64,000 bases of DNA from positions 51,513 through 115,512 of the forward strand of contig CAVVMA010000018.1 in the NCBI GenBank assembly GCA_963749215.1, given 5' to 3'. Source of the stretch: an uncultured delta proteobacterium (GTDB lineage: Bacteria > Desulfobacterota > Binatia > Binatales > Binataceae). Shown in pieces: positions 3,618 to 26,100 of this stretch. The notes under the pieces were generated by a model, which saw only the letters and a list, made by a program, of their open reading frames with translations, did not search any database and had not been told where the DNA came from. A program made the translations under genes and the position numbers. Within the stretch, counting starts at the first letter, position 1, and each line of letters starts with the position of its first letter.

Positions 3618-5318
3618 ATGGAAGTCAGTCCACTCGCAGGCAAGCCTGCCGACCCGTCGATACTCATAAACGTGCCCCGGCTCATAACGGCCTATTACAC
3701 GGGGCAGCCGGATCCGTCCGTGCCCGCGCAACGCGTGGTGTTTGGAACCTCGGGGCATCGCGGCTGCTCGCTGGACAACTCCTTCAACGAAGCGCACATC
3801 CTCGCGATAACCCAGGCCATCTGCCTTTACCGCAAACATCAGGGCATCGACGGGCCGCTGTATATCGGCATCGATACCCATGCGCTCTCGGAGCCGGCCT
3901 TTGCCAGTGCGATGGAGGTGCTGGCGGCCAACGGCGTCGAGGTGATGGTCGATGCGGCCGGCGGCTATACGCCGACCCCGGTAATCTCGCACGCGATTCT
4001 CACCTACAACCGCGGGCGCGATCGAGGCCGCGCGGACGGTATAGTGATTACGCCATCGCACAACCCGCCGCGATTCGGCGGCTTCAAATACGATCCGCCG
4101 CATGGCGGTCCTGCTGACACGCAAGTAACCGATTGGATCGAACAACGGGCCAACGCGCTGATCGCCGCCGAGCTGCGCGAAGTGGTGAGAGTGCCGTTTG
4201 AGCGCGCCCGCACGGCTCCCACCGCGCATAAGCACCCATACCTCGACTCTTATGTGAGCGATCTCGCCGGCGTGATCGACATGCAGGCAATTGGCGACAG
4301 TAAAGTTCACATCGGAGTCGATCCGCTGGGCGGCGCCAGCGTTGCCTATTGGGACGAGATCGGCGATCGCTACAAGCTGAACCTGGAGGTCGTGAATCAC
4401 ACCGTCGATCCGACTTTCCGCTTCATGACGGTCGATTGGGACGGCCAAATCCGGATGGACCCTTCGTCGGCGTACGCGATGGCGCGGATGGTCGGGCTGA
4501 AGGATCGCTTTGACGTTGCCTTCGCGTGCGATACCGACGCCGACCGCCATGGGATCGTGAGCCACAGTCACGGCCTGCTCGAGCCCAACCACTATCTCGC
4601 TGCCGCGATCGCATACCTGTTCGCGAACCGCCCTCGATGGTCCAGGACGGTCGCCGTCGGCAAGACCGTCGTCAGCACCGGCATGATCGATCGGGTCGCG
4701 GCGCGTCTGAACCGCCGGCTGATCGAGGTCCCGGTGGGTTTCAAGTGGTTCGTCGAAGGATTCATGGACGGCTCGCTCGGCTTCGGCGGCGAGGAGAGTT
4801 CGGGCGCCACCTTCCTGCGTCGTGACGGTACGGTCTGGACGACCGATAAGGACGGACTCGTACCGGACCTGCTCGCGGCAGAGATCACGGCCCGGACCGG
4901 ACATGACCCGGGCGAGCATTACGCCAAACTGACCGCTGAATTTGGCGATCCGGTGTACGAGCGCATCGACGCGCCGGCGACACTCGAGCAGAAAGCACGG
5001 CTGGGAAAATTGTCGTCCGAGGCGGTCACGGTCTCGAAGCTCGCAGGCGAGCCGATCGTAGCCAAGCTCACCAACGCGCCGGGCAACAACGCTTCGATCG
5101 GCGGCCTCAAAGTGATCGCGGCGAGCGGCTGGTTCGCCGCGCGGCCTTCGGGAACGGAGAGCATCTACAAGATTTACGCGGAAAGCTTCAAAAACCGGTC
5201 CCATTTGGAGGCCATTCTGAGCGAGGCCTATGAAATCGTGAACAACGCTCTGGCCGGCTCCTCCGGCGAGTCTGGCAATCCGGCGACGGCAGAGCGTAAG
5301 GTTGGAGTCGCATCATGA
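3618..5318 (+). CDS. pgm: Phosphoglucomutase (alpha-D-glucose-1,6-bisphosphate dependent)
   Basis: [16 protein letters not shown] (phosphoserine loop), DTDADRHG (metal loop), [19 protein letters not shown]. Confidence 0.97.
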
Positions 5319-5377: not shown

Positions 5378-6469
5378 ATGAAAGCTACTCAAATGTTGCA
5401 TAACCTGGGGCAAAGTATCTGGCTCGACAACATCACGCGCGAGTTTGTTGACCAGTGGAACGCTCCGCCGCTATATCGACGAATTGTCCGTAACCGGTCT
5501 CACGTCGAATCCGACGATCTTCGATCAGGCGATCAAGGGCAGCGCTGACTACGACGCCGCGATCCGAAAAGGACTCAGCGAGGGCAAATCGGAAGAGGGA
5601 CTGTTCTTCGGGCTGGCGCTCGAGGACCTGACTCAGGCGGCCGACCTGTTCCGTCCGATTCACGACCAGACTCGCGGCGTCGATGGCTGGGTGTCGCTGG
5701 AGGTCTCTCCTCTGCTTGCCCATGAAACCAAGACCACGCTGGCCGCGGCCAAAGATCTGCACGCGCGGGCGCGGCGCCCCAATCTGTTCATCAAGATACC
5801 CGGGAACCAGCGAGGGCCTGCCCGCGATCGAGGAAGCGATCTTTCGCCGGCGTTCCCATCAACGTGACGCTGTTGTTCTCGCGCGAGCAGTACCTCGCGG
5901 CTGCCGAGGCATACCTGCGCGGTATCGAGCGGCGCATCGCGGCGGGACTCGAGCCGGAGGTCGGCTCGGTAGCCTCGGTGTTCATCAGCCGCTGGGACGT
6001 CGCGGTGTCGGGCAAGGTGCCCGAGGCGCTGCGCGGCCAGCTCGGCATCGCGATCGCCAAACGCACTTACAAGGCCTATCGTGAACTGCTCGATTCACCA
6101 CGCTGGCAAACTATCCTCAATAGCGGTGCGCGTTCGCAACGCCTGCTCTGGGCCAGCACCGGAACCAAGGATCCGAAAGCCTCCGACATTCTGTACGTTA
6201 AAGCGCTGGCCGCGCCTTTCACGGTGAACACGATGCCCGAGGGCACCCTGAAGGCCCTGGCCGATCACGGCCAGCTCGATTCGATCTTGCCGGCCGACGG
6301 CGGCGATTGCGAAGAAGTCCTGGCGCAGTTCGCCAAGGCCGGAATCGATGTTGTCGCACTGGCTGCTCAGCTCCAGGATGAAGGAGCGAAGTCGTTCGTG
6401 AAGTCCTGGAATGAGCTGATGGAGTCGATCGATTCCAGAAGTTCGGCGATCAAGAAGAAGGCATCATGA
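5378..6469 (+). pseudogene. tal: Transaldolase (type 2/3), interrupted by three +1 frameshifts; probably an intact gene with sequencing errors
   Basis: ATG 5378 gives MKATQMLHNLGQSIWLDNITR; other frames give GLTSNPTIF, VSLEVSP, NLFIKIPG, EGLPAIEEAI, INVTLLFS, SVASVFISRWD, QRLLWASTGTKDP. Frame jumps at about 5444, 5801 and 5843, each in a homopolymer. Confidence 0.9.
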
Positions 6470-21700: not shown

Positions 21701-22229
21701 TCGAAGGCTCCCAGGCATTGCCGAAAAATTTCCCGTCCTCCGAGCCTAAGATCGGCGACCCGAACATCTGCTCGGCATGCGCGACCGTGTCCGCGAATCG
21801 AATCTGACGGGACTTGATGTCCGCCGACTCGATGTTGACATTCTGCGAATGAAGCCAGTCCAGCGCAGCGCTGAAGTCCGTCTGGGTCGGACCAAAGCGC
21901 GCGGCAAACTCGTCGGGCGTCAGCCAGCGATGATACTGCGGGGAGCTGGGATCCTGCTGATCGGCCAGCAACTTGTCGAGCGCGGCCTGATTGCGCAAGG
22001 CGAAGAAAATCGTGAGATCGAGCGGTTTGTCGCCTGCGGCCCGGCGAGTGAGGGGCAGATTGGAGATCGACGTGGAGACATTCCCGCGAAGCTGGACTGT
22101 GCCCGCGTTGGCTACGCCGAGGCACATCGATGCCGCAAAGGCTAAGGCGCAGAGAACGCGTTGCGTCCTTCCCGTCTCCGGCACGTGCGGGAATGGGGGC
22201 GCCAAAACCACCCGCGTCTCGCGGTCCAT
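18703..22229 (-). pseudogene. Secreted S53 (sedolisin/kumamolisin) peptidase with pro-domain, Pro-Thr linker and uncharacterised C-terminal domain; two apparent +1 frameshifts, likely sequencing errors
   Basis: Signal peptide, pro-domain (LTIFFALRNQ..L..LL..QQDP.SP.Y..WLTP..FA.RFGP), EAILDVEWAHAAAPGA, ASWDYG, VGGT, RDVPDVA. Deleting one C at about 20727 joins this to GFYV..GTS.SAPIWAG. Deleting one base at about 18836 gives C-terminus TIDPLSYPGDTSFFTTEQFA..WATSWALVPN* ending at 18703. Confidence 0.85.
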
Positions 22230-22372
22230 TGGGTCATGCCCCGGAGTAATTCGTCCGGGCCGGTCTGGCTGGGTCCGCCCGCGCGCTCTGTTCCACGACC
22301 CAGCCCATGAGATCAAGAGAAACCCTAACGAATGGACCACACCACAACGCTGACACGAATGTCAATCGGGCT

Positions 22373-22380
22373 CACATTGG
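22373..22380. repeat. Left target-site duplication CACATTGG
   Basis: The identical 8-mer occurs directly outside the right TIR (25654-25661). Confidence 0.93.
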
Positions 22381-22399
22381 GGTGGTGTCCTAATCTGAA
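22381..22399. repeat. Terminal inverted repeat (left in window)
   Basis: GGTGGTGTCCTAATCTGAA. Confidence 0.93.
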
Positions 22400-22596
22400 A
22401 AATTATCGCCGTCTTCGGCGTTGGGCGCGTCGAGGCCGACGAATTCGCCTCGACCCGGCAGCCGCGCCGTCGAAGAGTTCGGCCAGCGTGACGTGCTGCG
22501 GCTTCTTCCCCATGATTTCGGCGATTGTTTTTCGTAGACCTGACGGAGCATCCACACCCCGAAAATGAGCACTATTATCGCGATTGCAATTTCCAT
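22390..22596 (-). CDS. Small hypothetical protein with N-terminal hydrophobic segment inside the IS
   Basis: ATG 1 nt after the transposase stop, MEIAIAIIVLIFGVWML TM-like segment, stop codon inside the left TIR. The C-terminal frame is uncertain at an A-run near 22530. Confidence 0.45.
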   Translation of the reverse strand: MEIAIAIIVLIFGVWMLRQVYEKQSPKSWGRSRSTSRWPNSSTARLPGRGEFVGLDAPNAEDGDNFSD

Positions 22597-22597
22597 A

Positions 22598-23445
22598 TCA
22601 GGCCGCCGCTATGCCTTCCTCGGATTCTGCCGCTTCGATCAACTCGCCGACAGACCATAGCCGATTCGTGACCCCGGCTGCCATCGCGGGAGTGCAGCGC
22701 AATGTCCGATGCACGCGGACGAAATTGTAGTGCGCGTAGTGAAGTGCCACGGATGCCTTGAGGTTCGCCAGTTTTTTCGAGAAAGCCAGCGTTAGCCGCG
22801 CGAATCGCTTGTTTTCCATGCGAACGCTCAGGTTCTGGCGCTCGACAAAGCTTGTCGAAATATGGTCGGGATTTGGGCTCCTATAAGCTCCTCCCGCGTC
22901 GTGCGGATCATGCTGGGCGGCGAGTACCGACCACGCCCGACGTTAAGCTCGGATGCGAATACTTTGGTGATTTGCGCATAGTCTACCCTCCCGCTAAACG
23001 CATCGCGGATGGCTTCGTAGTACGGCTGAAAGGCGTCCGTGCTGATTTGCACTCTGCCGACGACGCGCGAGCGCAAGTCGTTAATAAATTCCTCAGTATC
23101 GAACCACGTGCGTCGTCCGACGTGAAAGCTCGGGACCAATTTTGTATCGCTATCGATTGCGACGAACGTGTAGGCATCGCCAAACTCACCACGTTCAGGA
23201 AGTTGAGCCGCACGCTTCTGTTTCATCCCGACGAAGGCCCACAATTCGTCCAGTTGGAGCCGCTGGCAGTTGAGGTTCCGCATTTCGTGGTCCATCAAAC
23301 GCAGGCATCCTTCGCCTACGCGAAACCCAAGCCGCATGATCGTGTCGCGATGGATTCCGGTCATACGCTCGATACTGCGAATCGAATTGCACTCGACAAG
23401 AGCCGCGATTACGCGGCAGCGCTGCTCTGCGTTTAACGTATACAT
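22598..23445 (-). pseudogene. IS1-family DDE transposase with one -1 frameshift (about 22880); inactivated or a sequencing error
   Basis: HTH (LVECNSIRSIERMTGIHRDTIMRL), QLDELWAFVG (D), ISTDAFQPY (D). Adding one base restores SPNPDHISTSFVERQNLSVRM.NKRFARLTLAFSKK (E), continuing into ORF 22598-22819. Confidence 0.9.
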
Positions 23446-23578
23446 GACACACATGGTGCCCGAGCGGTCACGCATAGTCAAGGGCCATAAACATCGTCAC
23501 AGACTTGCGGGTTAGGTAAAGTGTCTGCAAATGGTCATCGCGCCTATTGCACGCGCCAACAAAAATCAGATATGTAAT

Positions 23579-23746
23579 CGATGGAGGGTGGCGGGACCTG
23601 AGGATTTTCTCTTCGCGGGAGTTGCCTCAGGCCCGCCGCCGTGGGAGGTGGTCCTATGATACTAGGAGCCGGTTGAACCGGCGTGAGAGGGGGCGGCGTT
23701 TCACGTGGACGTGCAGCCCTCTCTGCTGTCTCCCATCGCTTTTTAT
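23579..23746 (+). ncRNA. Candidate structured RNA / leader inside the IS, upstream of the HTH gene (strand uncertain)
   Basis: GGCGGG-A-CCTGAGG/CCTCAGG-CCCGCC long hairpin, then TGGGAG/CTCCCA enclosing TCCTA/TAGGA, GCCGG/CCGGC and GAGAGGG/CCCTCTC stems, followed by a T5 tract. Confidence 0.45.
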
Positions 23747-23772
23747 ATCAGATGGAATCGAGGTGAACAACG

Positions 23773-24435
23773 ATGGCAACGGAAATCGATTATGCCGTAG
23801 TTCTGGCCGATTTGGAGGCTAAAAGAGGCGCTATCGACAGCGCAATCGCGGGCGTCAGGCAGGTTCTAAATCTCGGCGCTGAACAAGGGGTAGCCCCATC
23901 TTCGCCATTGGGGATCGAGAGGAAGGATCAACCTACGCAAGTTAGATTTGACACGTTTTTCCGAATGTCGATGCCCAGCGCGATTGTCAAATATCTTGAA
24001 ATGGCGAAGGCTCCTCAGTCTGTCAGCGACGTAACAAAGGCGCTATTGGAAGGCGGGTTTAAGACAACCTCCAAAAACCTAATGCCGATTGTCGGGTCGA
24101 ACCTCTCGCGGCTGAAATCAGCGGGCCAGACTGTTAACGTTGAAGGCAAGTGGGGTTTGGCTTCTTGGTATCCCGCAGCCCGAAAAGCCGAGCTGGCACC
24201 GAAATCTAAAAGGGGGCGCAAGCGGGGGCGACCGAAAGGATCGGGAAAGGCCAACGCCAAGGGGAGCACGCCAACGGCAGAAAAGAAGGCGACCCCGGTA
24301 AAGCCGACTGTCGATCAGATTGAGCAGATCAAAAAACTGAGTGCGGCAGGGAAAAAACCCGGCGAGGTCGCAAAGGCAGTGGGCCTCCACCACTTTACGG
24401 TAATGGCCGTTCTGAAATCGAAGAAGGCGGCGTAA
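23773..24435 (+). CDS. Hypothetical DNA-binding protein: N-terminal coiled coil, winged-helix (HARE-HTH-like) domain, Lys/Arg-rich linker, C-terminal HTH
   Basis: GAGGTG RBS. AIVKYLEMAKAPQSVSDVTKALLEGGF...VGSNLSRL..WGLASWY winged-helix pattern, KRGRKRGRPKG AT-hook-like motif, KKPGEVAKAVGLHHFTVMAVL HTH. Confidence 0.7.
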   Translation: MATEIDYAVVLADLEAKRGAIDSAIAGVRQVLNLGAEQGVAPSSPLGIERKDQPTQVRFDTFFRMSMPSAIVKYLEMAKAPQSVSDVTKALLEGGFKTTSKNLMPIVGSNLSRLKSAGQTVNVEGKWGLASWYPAARKAELAPKSKRGRKRGRPKGSGKANAKGSTPTAEKKATPVKPTVDQIEQIKKLSAAGKKPGEVAKAVGLHHFTVMAVLKSKKAA

Positions 24436-24447
24436 AGGGGAAAGCGG

Positions 24448-25227
24448 ATGCTGGTCTACGTAGACGAAAGCTATCAAGCGGCGAACGTTTCAAACTGCAA
24501 ATCGACGTTCGCCGCTGTCTGTATCCCGCAGGAAAATTACCGTGCGTTTGACACAGACTTTTTCAAACTAAAGAAGCACTTTTGGAAGAATATTCAGGAA
24601 CCATCAGAACTCGAATTGAAAGGGCGTAATCTGTTATCGACGCACGCGCTTGAACTCCCTAAAAATCGTGACCTCATCCGTCAACTAATCATCCTGATGA
24701 AAGAATATGGGATCGTGCCTTTTGCCGTTGTGCAAAATGGTTCGCTTCAATTGTCAGCAATTCAACCGCCCGACCTCCCCTCGTTATATCGCGGGGTATT
24801 GCGCCGAGTAGATCGGTACATGACGGAGAGATTCCCAACTGGGCAAGCGATCTTGTTCTTTGACGGAATTGATCATCAAACGAACCAAAAAATCGCGATC
24901 GCTTTCAACGGCTATATGTTCCGTCACTTTTGGGGTTCCCAACTGCTGCATGTCCTTCCGGTTCCAAACTTCAGCGATTCGGTTGTTACGCCCGGTATCC
25001 AAATCGCCGATGTGCTTGCGTATTGCGTTAACGAGCGATACGCAAACTACGGTCATCAAGGCGAGCATCTGGAGGATTTCTTTCGACAATTCCGAGAGTT
25101 GAGCTTTACCTACGAAAACCCCGACGAAAATGTCAGAGTGTGGGGATTTCAAAGGCTTGGTTCATCCTGGACGGGCCATCCCGAAACCGAAGACGAGGCC
25201 AAACCGGAGTCTGAAGAACCTATTTGA
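24448..25227 (+). CDS. DUF3800 domain-containing protein
   Basis: N-terminal YVDES, ELKG, LFFDG and C-terminal SDS..TPGIQIADVLAY (DE and QxxD motifs typical of DUF3800). Confidence 0.85.
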   Translation: MLVYVDESYQAANVSNCKSTFAAVCIPQENYRAFDTDFFKLKKHFWKNIQEPSELELKGRNLLSTHALELPKNRDLIRQLIILMKEYGIVPFAVVQNGSLQLSAIQPPDLPSLYRGVLRRVDRYMTERFPTGQAILFFDGIDHQTNQKIAIAFNGYMFRHFWGSQLLHVLPVPNFSDSVVTPGIQIADVLAYCVNERYANYGHQGEHLEDFFRQFRELSFTYENPDENVRVWGFQRLGSSWTGHPETEDEAKPESEEPI

Positions 25228-25335
25228 GGGGGTCTGAAGGGGGGAGAAAACTGGCTGCCGTTTAAGGCACGCGACGTTAGCGATTGGCCAACGCACCAGT
25301 TTCCTACTGATTTGAATTTAGACATTGTAGACCCC
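25228..25335 (+). ncRNA. Candidate DUF3800-associated structured RNA
   Basis: Starts directly after the DUF3800 stop. Outer stem GGGGTCT/AGACCCC (25229-35/25329-35), inner stem AAACTGG/CCAGTTT (25248-54/25296-302) enclosing TGCC-GTTTAA-GGCA and CGTT..AACG hairpins. Confidence 0.55.
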
Positions 25336-25340
25336 ATGCG

Positions 25341-25598
25341 TCAAGACTGGCGTTTCAGCCATCGAGCCCGTGCTGCCTTGGAAGCGCTCTCCCGCAGTTG
25401 TTCTTTCGTCAGCCTTGCCGCCCTTGCCGGTCCGCCCTTGAGCCCGCCCAACCTGCCCAGCGCCCGCGCTAGGCTGCTCCGCATTGCAGCGTCGCTCAGG
25501 TCGGGCTCCTCGGTCGCTTCGATGACGTGGCGCGCCATCCGACCGGCGATCTGATTTATGTCCTCGGGTTCCTGCCGCTTTCGTGACCGCTTACGCAT
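25341..25598 (-). CDS. Small basic protein with KGG-like motif (family often mis-annotated as histone H1/RNA-binding), IS passenger
   Basis: EDINQIA..MA..ALGRLGGLKGGPARAARLTKEQLRESASKAARARW. Starts 37 bp inside the right TIR and is co-oriented with the transposase. Confidence 0.75.
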   Translation of the reverse strand: MRKRSRKRQEPEDINQIAGRMARHVIEATEEPDLSDAAMRSSLARALGRLGGLKGGPARAARLTKEQLRESASKAARARWLKRQS

Positions 25599-25634
25599 AC
25601 GGCCATCGTGGCAGATATGGGCGGATCGGGCAAA

Positions 25635-25653
25635 TTCAGATTAGGACACTACC
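25635..25653. repeat. Terminal inverted repeat (right in window)
   Basis: TTCAGATTAGGACACTACC, followed by TSD CACATTGG (25654-25661). Confidence 0.93.
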
Positions 25654-25807
25654 CACATTGGAAGAAAGGCTGGCCCATGGGCTCAGGGGAGCGAGCCGCG
25701 GGTGCGATCGGCGCCGGCCCGATGCAAACGCTTTGCGGCACGATCCAGGAGCCGAGCTCGCCGGCGTCCGGCTGGTGTTCGCGTCGGACCAGGCTGCACT
25801 CTGGACA

Positions 25808-25842
25808 TTAACAATCTGATATAATACAATACAGTTTGTTAA
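25808..25842 (+). promoter_or_regulatory. Extended -10 promoter (TGnTATAAT) flanked by an inverted repeat (putative operator)
   Basis: TG-A-TATAAT at 25817-25825 lies between TTAACAATCTG and CAGTTTGTTAA (10/11 inverted match); AAAGGAGG RBS follows. Confidence 0.55.
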
Positions 25843-25893
25843 AGGAGGCCGGAGCGATGAGGCGAGCGCTCATTCGGCCGAGGAGCAGTCACG

Positions 25894-26100
25894 ATGGCAT
25901 CGACACAGGCGCCCGCAGCCCACGAAAAACGCTTCGAGATCCCCAAAGCCGTCACCGGCGGTCTTCGCCTGCTCGACCGGCTGAGCGCCTTCGAATCGCC
26001 GATCGTTCAGGTCGCGGTCATAATCCTGGCGGCCGCGATGGCTTCGGTAGTGGGCGGCACGATCATCAGGATGCTGGCCGACGGCCTGGGCCAGTCCTGA
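25894..26100 (+). CDS. Small hypothetical membrane protein
   Basis: GAGGAG RBS 8 nt upstream; one hydrophobic helix IVQVAVIILAAAMASVVGGTII. Confidence 0.55.
   Translation: MASTQAPAAHEKRFEIPKAVTGGLRLLDRLSAFESPIVQVAVIILAAAMASVVGGTIIRMLADGLGQS

Follow-up and report, generated by a model that had tools for sequence, protein, structure and literature searches.

A conserved folded RNA upstream of a DNA-binding regulator gene in small IS1-like cargo transposons

The stretch of DNA analyzed here (the window) comprises 64,000 nucleotides from an uncultured delta proteobacterium of the family Binataceae (GenBank assembly GCA_963749215.1, contig CAVVMA010000018.1, positions 51,513 to 115,512 of the forward strand). 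It contains a 3.3-kb cargo transposon of the IS1 family, bounded by 19-bp terminal inverted repeats and an 8-bp target-site duplication, which carries, in this order, a transposase gene (minus strand), a structured RNA (predicted on the plus strand), a gene for a HARE-HTH (helix-turn-helix) regulator (plus strand), a variable cargo slot and a small KGG-like gene (minus strand). A first-pass annotation made from the sequence alone had proposed that the region between the divergent transposase and regulator genes encodes a structured RNA, possibly a switchable leader. We find there a conserved folded RNA of approximately 150–190 nt, located upstream of the gene for a DNA-binding regulator in small cargo transposons. 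As proposed in that annotation, the RNA is encoded by the element, and it appears to be oriented like the HTH gene, which it directly precedes.

Fold and conservation of the RNA

On the plus strand, the minimum free energy (MFE) structure predicted by RNAfold for positions 23587–23736 is a four-way junction preceded by a long bulged hairpin. The first-pass annotation had described just such an arrangement, with three hairpins closed by the junction, and every stem that it named was found in its place in the MFE structure. The long hairpin, H1 (23587–23640), consists of 9 and 7 bp (16 bp) around a bulged A23596 and a 5-bp apical helix, and its apical consensus is CUC-UUUGGCCG-GAG. The junction is closed by helix P1, whose 5' strand (GUGGGAGGUGGU, 23641–23652) pairs with the 3' strand (GCUGUCUCCCAU, 23725–23736) according to both the MFE structure and covariation. 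P1 includes the stem TGGGAG/CTCCCA and is lengthened through G-U pairs that are valid on the plus strand only. The consensus of its 5' strand, GGGAGGUGGUG, is Shine-Dalgarno-like and that of its 3' strand, CACCACUCCC, includes an anti-Shine-Dalgarno-like CUCCC; both are conserved far beyond the needs of pairing. Within the junction, the MFE structure has a short hairpin P2 (CCTA/TAGG, 23653–23666) with a conserved loop UGAUA(C/G/A), the most conserved hairpin P3 (GCCGGU-UGA-ACCGGC, 23668–23682) with the loop consensus UnGAA, and a GC-rich hairpin P4 (GAGAGGGGC/GCCCTCTC with an inner stem, 23686–23724). In distant members, the P3 stem is replaced by one of the GCCCC/GGGGC type, and P4 varies in length, being two-tiered in the window and 7–11 bp long in other members. 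Upstream of H1 lies a purine-rich flank (CGAUGGAG, 23579–23586; GUGGAAGGAAGG in most homologues), which is the 5' partner of an alternative pairing. Downstream of the junction, a tentative hairpin P5 (23733–23755), formed by CCAUC (23733–23737) and GAUGG (23751–23755), folds in most homologues, overlaps P1 by 2–3 nt and bears a conserved UUUAUA(U/G)CA in its loop. The core of the RNA is 23587–23736 (H1 and the four-way junction P1–P4), probably with P5 as a further hairpin that reaches 23755. The structured region is single-copy in its own genome, as seen in a DNA search, and hence does not belong to a repeat family.

The MFE of 23587–23736 is –88.2 kcal/mol, compared with –68.4 ± 4.3 kcal/mol for dinucleotide-shuffled sequences (z = –4.67), and none of the 200 shuffles was as stable. 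The minus strand of the region gave a similar value (z = –4.85), so energy alone carries no information on the strand. The homologue in genome G029, which was folded independently, adopts the same architecture with z = –6.49.

A 77%-identical copy with the same gene order was found by DNA search in another genus, and the pairwise alignment already shows compensatory changes. Since register shifts in a MAFFT alignment resulted in a poor RNAalifold consensus, it was replaced by alignments to covariance models, built from the window sequence alone (R1), from 7 sequences (R2) and from 15 sequences (R3). R2 matches nine of the 165 genomes of the family Binataceae. Eight of these are the genomes in which the HTH gene has a close homologue, and each has a single copy of the RNA; the same architecture is located just upstream of every close homologue of this gene. 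The ninth match, in G104 (locus L030, 1501–1616), is weak and partial, with H1, P2 and P3 (GCCGGUGGAACCGGC) but neither P1 nor P4; the genome has no close HTH homologue, and the match is probably a remnant. Among 400 genomes sampled from the rest of the class, none matched the RNA model. A contig search with the single HTH protein yielded no match, but a repeat with the protein alignment found relatives, and a model search of the loci retrieved in this way detected the RNA in another 10 or more distinct contigs from soil metagenomes, along with weak matches in Nitrospira and Nevskiaceae metagenome-assembled genomes (MAGs). In these loci, all R3 matches at E < 0.1 are on the plus strand, and the RNA ends approximately 25–60 nt upstream of the HTH start wherever that start could be placed. 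No relatives of the HTH protein were found in the plasmid collection.

The model-fitted alignments show extensive covariation. In alignment A9 (15 distinct sequences), 87% of the cells are paired and 47 of the 58 pairs are changed on both sides, with a covariation score of 0.497 as opposed to 0.184 in shuffled alignments; none of 500 shuffles reached this score and slid registers scored at most 0.108. Likewise, in alignment A12 (18 distinct sequences) 85.3% of the cells are paired, double changes are seen in 49 of the 58 pairs and the score is 0.477 (shuffled, 0.167; 0/500 shuffles; slid registers, at most 0.118). Helix 2 of the model, the main stem of H1 with 14 modelled pairs, is 93–96% paired, with compensatory changes in 13 of the 14 pairs. 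In A12, P1 is 79% paired with double changes in 11 of 12 pairs, P2 is paired in 72% of the cells with all four pairs covarying, P3 is 94% paired, and the two helices of P4 are 79% and (the inner one) 97% paired, with double changes in 13 of 15 pairs. In quality, this comparative support equals that of curated Rfam families. The first-pass annotation had staked its proposal on a folding energy better than that of shuffled controls and on conservation upstream of homologous HTH genes, and on both counts it is borne out, the covariance models finding the same fold in other genomes and in metagenomes.

The transposon and its exchangeable cargo

The left target-site duplication, CACATTGG (22373–22380), was read directly, and the same 8 bp recur at 25654–25661. 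The left terminal inverted repeat, GGTGGTGTCCTAATCTGAA (22381–22399, plus strand), was found in a repeat search as a 20-nt segment 95% complementary to 25635–25654; the right one (25635–25653, minus strand) is followed by the right target duplication. Homologous copies in genomes G029 and G023 are bounded by the same repeats at unrelated sites, and their target duplications, CCGCGGCG and TCGCGTTG, are unlike that in the window, with no common motif. The IS1-family-like DDE transposase gene (22598–23445, minus strand) was delineated from open reading frames (ORFs); it has a frameshift near 22819–22828 and a probable start at the ATG at 23445 (MYTLNAEQ...). The encoded protein matches the NCBIfam IS1 transposase with E = 2e-10, below the curated cutoff, and is therefore a distant IS1 member; intact orthologues of 275–283 aa are present in G029, G023 and locus L033. 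Assignment to the IS1 family agrees with the IS1-type DDE transposase, the 19-bp inverted repeats and the 8-bp duplications found in three independent insertions.

The regulator gene (23773–24435, plus strand) encodes a protein of 220 aa in which a long N-terminal helix and a winged helix are joined by a KR-rich linker to a C-terminal three-helix HTH. Pfam matches to HARE-HTH and HTH_7/HTH_23 were obtained with proteins of its alignment, the C-terminal HTH being of the resolvase type. In its AlphaFold model (pLDDT 80.7), the closest folds are the winged helices of RNA polymerase delta and linker histones, none with E < 0.001. It is followed, 12 nt past the stop codon, by the cargo gene of the window (24448–25227, plus strand), which encodes a DUF3800 protein of 259 aa (Pfam PF12686, E = 2.7e-9). 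The small basic KGG-like protein of 85 aa (25341–25598, minus strand) is a conserved core gene product of the element, with orthologues in G005, G093, G029, G023, G106, L033, L043 and L054; no Pfam match was found for it.

The cargo slot between the HTH and KGG genes (24436–25340 in the window; equivalents in L004, L017, L018, L019, L033, L054 and L081) is exchangeable. According to Pfam, it contains a DUF3800 gene in the window and in a Gemmatimonadaceae MAG, a gene for a GAF-like membrane protein in G005, a gene for an NYN-domain protein in G029 and L033, and a SocA/Panacea gene with a 103-aa partner in L054; two small membrane ORFs occupy it in G106, and in G023 it is empty. These cargos look like defense or toxin-antitoxin genes. 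Since elements of the G029 type leave no intergenic room beside the cargo gene, a small RNA next to DUF3800 could not be a universal partner of the RNA described here. The RNA, the HTH gene and the KGG gene are kept across all cargo variants, including the empty slot, and the element family has four conserved core parts: the transposase, the RNA, the HARE-HTH protein and the small KGG-like protein. The last three are missing from the plain IS1-like paralogues that the same genome carries.

The HTH relatives extend to other phyla. A divergent IS1-like transposase gene lies 330–400 nt upstream of the relatives in Nitrospira, Alphaproteobacteria, Gemmatimonadaceae and Chloroflexia MAGs, whereas in two gammaproteobacterial MAGs (Nevskiaceae and Steroidobacteraceae) the HTH relative has no adjacent IS1-like transposase and, by eye, keeps a P2-P3-P4-like leader. 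Relatives in other phyla are at the detection limit of R3, with matches on both strands, and homology of the RNA there is suggested by the by-eye similarity of P2–P3–P4. The unit occurs in Binatota and, as sequence similarity suggests, in diverged form in Gemmatimonadota, Nitrospirota, Proteobacteria and Chloroflexota. Because the RNA stays while the cargo varies or is absent, and seems by eye to be kept at two MAG loci without the transposase, the RNA is linked to the HARE-HTH gene, with which it travels; it is tied neither to DUF3800 nor strictly to the transposase.

Many copies of the element are decaying. The window copy is probably immobile on its own, because the –10 element of its transposase promoter has decayed to CACCAT and the gene is frameshifted; transposase genes are broken in the window, G093 and G106. 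The HTH gene is frameshifted in G002 (L020, 5900–6671) and C-terminally truncated in G001 (L021, 5700–6435), and the RNA upstream of it still scores 92 bits in G002 and 75 bits in G001 with R2. The copy in G093 (L016, 3470–6603) is rearranged: a second HARE-HTH gene (208 aa) lies with the KGG gene beyond the fragmented transposase gene, which has the promoter palindrome in inverted orientation at both of its ends (4762–4777 and 5693–5708). The copy in G106 is directly adjoined by an IS1595-like transposase split into two ORFs (L019, 4008–4965). In the genome to which the window belongs, facing pairs of the same IS1-like terminal repeat, 230–800 bp apart, occur at C13:17888–18498 and in many other places (e.g., C8:140866–141111, C9:195723–195970 and C15:326945–327761). 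One pair has the exact sequence GGTAGTGTCCTAATTTGA and many others have GGTAGTGTCTCAGTTTGA; they do not contain the RNA and look like non-autonomous derivatives of this IS group, that is, miniature inverted-repeat transposable elements (MITEs).

On its minus strand, the element has two copies of a 17-mer, ATGCGT(G/A)A(C/G)CGGTCACG. That at 23459–23475 is the spacer of the putative transposase promoter and contains the palindrome CGTGACCGGTCACG, and that at 25582–25598 spans the opening codons (ATGCGTAAGCGGTCACG) of the KGG-like gene. Each is conserved in G029 and G023, and in sequence the 17-mer looks like a putative shared operator for one of the HTH proteins of the element.

Transcription and possible functions

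In paired cells read on the plus strand, G-U exceeds A-C by 68 to 24 and 76 to 39 in the two alignments, which indicates an RNA on this strand, as a minus-strand RNA would show the reverse. A likely promoter for it was recognized by eye at 23547–23578 (plus strand), with a –35 element TTGCAC (23547–23552) and a –10 element TATGTA/TGTAAT (ending at 23578, from 23571), so that the predicted start of the RNA is at about 23583–23586 (near 23584). This arrangement (TTGCnn, a spacer of 17–18 nt and TAnnnn) is kept in 10 homologues, even though the spacer sequences differ, and it ends approximately 7 nt before the purine-rich tract that precedes H1. Downstream, conservation runs via UUUAUA(G/U)CA and GGAUCG to the Shine-Dalgarno sequence and the start codon of the HTH gene (23760–23775), identified from the sequence and the alignment as GAGGUG (23760–23765) and ATG (23773). 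In most homologues, GGAGG or GAGGUG is located 7–10 nt before the start codon; two of the 14 modelled homologues were assigned an AGGA match. Together, the G-U and A-C counts, the promoter-like spacing and the constant distance from the start codon suggest that transcription runs rightwards into the HTH gene.

The transposase gene appears to be transcribed from a promoter at 23446–23481 (minus strand), which comprises a –35 element TTGACT (23481–23476), a 17-nt spacer that in the window holds a degenerate copy of the palindrome, and the degenerate –10 element. Across the alignment, this promoter reads TTGAC(T/A), a 17-nt spacer with the palindrome, and TATAnT; in G029, it was called by the promoter scan as TTGACA-18-TATAGT (L017, 5632–5668), 7 nt before the ATG. 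The transposase mRNA is probably leaderless, because the ATG is only 7 nt after the –10 element. The two transcripts should not overlap, because the predicted transposase promoter and leaderless start (23445–23481) lie to the left of the RNA start, which argues against control by overlap of the transposase, one of the two possible targets named in the first-pass annotation. Its proposal of the T5 tract (23740–23744) as an attenuator or terminator did not hold up either: the terminator scan called none in the window, and the tract is not conserved, homologues having UUUAUA(G/U)CA in its place. Members of the G029 type (G029, L017 5919–5952; G002, G023, L033 and L036) have a U-rich tract after P4 (UAUUUUCA, CUCUUUUCA and similar); in G029, P4 and this tract were called terminator-like by the scan. 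The tract is not seen in window-type members and could be a subgroup-specific attenuator or a route to a short RNA.

Judging from its sequence context, the RNA is most likely a regulatory 5' leader, and we lean, with some reserve, towards a leader that acts in cis on the HARE-HTH/cargo transcript. Transcribed rightwards from its own promoter-like site, the RNA would form an approximately 190-nt 5' leader of the HARE-HTH and cargo mRNA and would set, in cis, the amounts of regulator and cargo made. A bound factor could shift the fold and thereby alter translation or mRNA stability; candidates for this factor are a small ligand, the HARE-HTH or KGG protein of the element itself, or a host protein, which would recognize the conserved loops UUUGGCCG, UGAUA, UnGAA and UAUAGCA. 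Such a shift is conceivable because P1 is the weakest helix and both of its strands have competing partners. In the fold of the full leader, P1 is the least stable helix, and forcing it costs approximately 1–18 kcal/mol relative to the free MFE. An alternative partner for the GUGGUG of P1 is a conserved upstream CGCCAC, with which it can form a hairpin of 4–6 bp, recognized by eye in some two thirds of the sequences. CUCCC has the true Shine-Dalgarno sequence as a possible partner, and the tail that follows it has either the 5' flank (a helix designated P0, 23579–23584 with 23733–23738) or the 3' strand of P5. On weak evidence, these alternative partners of P1 resemble an expression platform. 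A switchable leader of the HTH-cargo operon, as envisaged by the first-pass annotation, is the best-fitting reading of the RNA, which is not bound to DUF3800 in particular, the cargo being variable or absent.

Several points weigh against the leader. Because the alignments were fitted to the model, the paired percentages and G-U counts are somewhat inflated; the signal is nevertheless real, given that the slid-register control and the independent MFE structure of the G029 homologue agree. The promoter scan of the window called no sigma-70-like site, and the proposed RNA promoter is below the scan threshold. The mutually exclusive pairing postulated in the first-pass annotation, P0, is present in the window, but its comparative support is weak: 61% of the cells are paired compared with 51% in shuffled alignments, and the score is 0.291 compared with 0.195, a value reached by 13 of 500 shuffles; moreover, transcription from the predicted start may leave most of the 5' partner outside the RNA. 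Support for P5 is weak to moderate (58.8% compared with 54.2% paired; 0.269 compared with 0.189; 5/500 shuffles). In constrained partition-function folding of the 14 homologues, the mean unpaired probability of the Shine-Dalgarno sequence was ~0.59 when P1 was forced and ~0.51 when its 5' strand was blocked, and no consistent change in accessibility was seen, the direction differing among the homologues. Finally, the HARE-HTH protein looks, from its domain matches and closest folds, like a DNA binder, which does not favor autoregulation through RNA binding.

Other explanations of the conserved region have to be compared with the leader. Chance stems in GC-rich intergenic DNA might be suspected, since the region has a G+C content of 62% and shuffled controls already fold to –68 kcal/mol. 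However, no shuffle matched the stability of the native sequence, and the fold is conserved and covaries over 18 distinct sequences, between which the identity of the flanking proteins falls to ~35%; covariation that none of 500 shuffles equaled in either alignment refutes this explanation, to which we give practically no weight. We also consider it improbable that the palindromes act at the DNA level, as operators or cruciforms bound by the HTH proteins of the element in a divergent promoter region. The region is indeed flanked by two divergent genes, P3 (GCCGGTT-G-AACCGGC) is perfectly palindromic and almost invariant in the manner of an operator, the z-scores are similar on both strands, and symmetric operators also "covary". 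Yet four to six nested or adjacent helices, free compensatory change in 49 of 58 pairs, variable stems and the long-range P1 do not fit operators, the 2–3 to 1 excess of G-U over A-C is seen on the plus strand only, and the clear operator-like palindrome sits elsewhere, in the spacer of the transposase promoter. An even lower probability attaches to a guide or transposition cofactor in the manner of the IS110 bridge RNA or the IS605/IscB omega RNA, or to an antisense RNA like IS10 RNA-OUT, although the structured RNA is strictly conserved beside a transposase gene in elements of several phyla, which speaks for this reading. The transposase is a DDE IS1-like enzyme, the three 8-bp target duplications are unrelated, the longest stretch of the RNA complementary to the ends of the element or the reconstructed empty site is 6–7 nt, as expected from shuffled sequences, and the plain IS1-like paralogues do without the RNA; a guide RNA was rejected on these grounds. 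The HTH relatives that appear to keep the leader in the absence of any transposase fit neither a guide nor an antisense RNA. As for the latter, the RNA would start near 23584 and not overlap the transposase transcript, which would begin at the ATG at 23445 with its –10 element 7 nt upstream, and an antisense regulator of the transposase is likewise disfavored.

A separate stable non-coding RNA, acting in trans or forming a ribonucleoprotein with the HARE-HTH protein, the KGG-like protein or the transposase, is the most serious of these alternatives, although we regard it as rather unlikely. Such an RNA would arise if transcription terminated, or the transcript was processed, ahead of the HTH gene, and its adjacency to that gene would only reflect the compactness of the element. 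Conserved loops and a multi-helix junction are typical of protein- and ligand-binding RNAs, P4 and the U-rich tract of the G029 type are terminator-like and would give an RNA of ~145 nt, the RNA is intact where the HTH gene has decayed (G001 and G002), and there is a precedent in the DUF3800-associated motifs, unexplained structured RNAs beside such genes (PMC5737381). On the other hand, window-type members have no U-rich tract after P4 and no terminator was called in the window; termination at P4 would drop the 3' strand of P1, and yet P1 covaries (11 of 12 pairs with double changes); and the conserved linker and the close, constant distance from the Shine-Dalgarno sequence and ATG are more typical of a leader.

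A more far-reaching version, which we hold to be doubtful, is that the RNA is a true sensor or scaffold, in the form of either a riboswitch-like aptamer or a ribonucleoprotein subunit. It would then be the control center of a widespread family of IS1-like cargo transposons and couple a cellular or phage-derived signal to the regulator and its exchangeable defense- or toxin-like cargo (DUF3800, NYN or Panacea). If so, DDE transposons would have a form of RNA-based control that constitutes a new class. Few large bacterial RNAs combine multi-helix junctions and conserved loops with strong covariation, and those that do have repeatedly proved to be riboswitches, ribozymes or ribonucleoprotein subunits. 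Here, the RNA is tied to a defined, experimentally tractable 3-kb unit that consists of the transposase, the RNA, the HARE-HTH gene, an exchangeable cargo slot and the KGG-like protein. Identification of the sensed signal would explain how cargo transposons control themselves and their defense-like cargo, add a test case for the structured RNAs that accompany DUF3800 genes and supply a new regulatory RNA part.

Comparison with known RNAs and mobile elements

The RNA is a core part of an IS1-like cargo transposon family, and as a structured RNA family it is uncatalogued. A cmscan of window positions 22000–26000 against Rfam 15 with permissive filters (E ≤ 10) returned only a chance match to sR38 (15 bits) inside the HTH gene, and that of nine homologous loci (E ≤ 1) only an unrelated tRNA and a chance histone stem-loop; we take Rfam 15 to include the DUF3800 motifs, HEARO, and the known riboswitches and ribozymes. 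This agrees with the first-pass annotation, which had recognized no known riboswitch or ribozyme in the region. A tRNA- or tmRNA-like element was rejected, as ARAGORN found no tRNA or tmRNA gene at 23400–23900, the P3 loop has 3–5 nt and there is no T-loop. A literature search found no structured RNA associated with IS1 or HARE-HTH.

Among transposon-encoded regulatory RNAs, RNA-OUT of IS10/Tn10 is an antisense RNA. Another example is IS200, with its 5' untranslated region (UTR) and the regulatory RNA art200 (PMC5435999). The RNA described here is similarly an element-encoded structured RNA in a transposase-proximal control region. However, the IS10 and IS200 RNAs act on the mRNA of the transposase, either as antisense partners or by masking its Shine-Dalgarno sequence, whereas the present RNA lies in front of an accessory regulator gene and points away from a transposase mRNA that is probably leaderless. 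The partner of the IS110 bridge RNA is a DEDD recombinase, and the partners of omega RNAs are TnpB and IscB. These share with the present RNA a structured molecule of ~150–200 nt conserved in a mobile element beside a transposition gene, but here the enzyme is of the DDE IS1-like type, the target duplications are variable, and the RNA has no complementarity to the ends or target and is absent from the plain IS1-like paralogues.

The element itself fits the IS1 family with passenger genes, in the single-ORF ISMhu11-type subgroup of ISfinder, with which it shares an IS1-like DDE transposase, GGT-initiated inverted repeats, an 8-bp duplication and passenger genes. We know of no conserved structured RNA and no HARE-HTH/KGG accessory module described for the IS1 family; literature searches returned no paper on IS1 elements with passenger genes, and none that reports either feature in them.

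The nearest described phenomenon is that of the DUF3800-associated RNA motifs, DUF3800-I to -XI, the function of which is unknown (Weinberg et al. 2017, Nucleic Acids Res 45:10811, PMC5737381). These, too, are structured RNAs with complex conserved features that are found beside DUF3800 genes, often on mobile DNA (PMC5737381). In contrast, the RNA in the window tracks the HARE-HTH gene, DUF3800 being just one cargo of a slot that can be empty, and no Rfam 15 model matches the region in the window or the nine homologous loci.

The closest working analogy is that with riboswitches and protein-binding leaders, such as those of ribosomal-protein genes. The RNA differs from these in that the downstream gene encodes a transposon regulator and not a metabolic or ribosomal protein, and in the lack of a conserved terminator and of a consistent in-silico switch for Shine-Dalgarno sequestration. 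What it appears to share with them is a large, conserved fold of several helices, situated in what is probably a 5' UTR, an anti-Shine-Dalgarno-like 3' strand in the closing helix P1, conserved unpaired nucleotides in loops and the junction, and a fixed distance to the start codon. As in riboswitches, the aptamer-like fold is conserved and covaries, in this case in 49 of the 58 pairs over 18 sequences.

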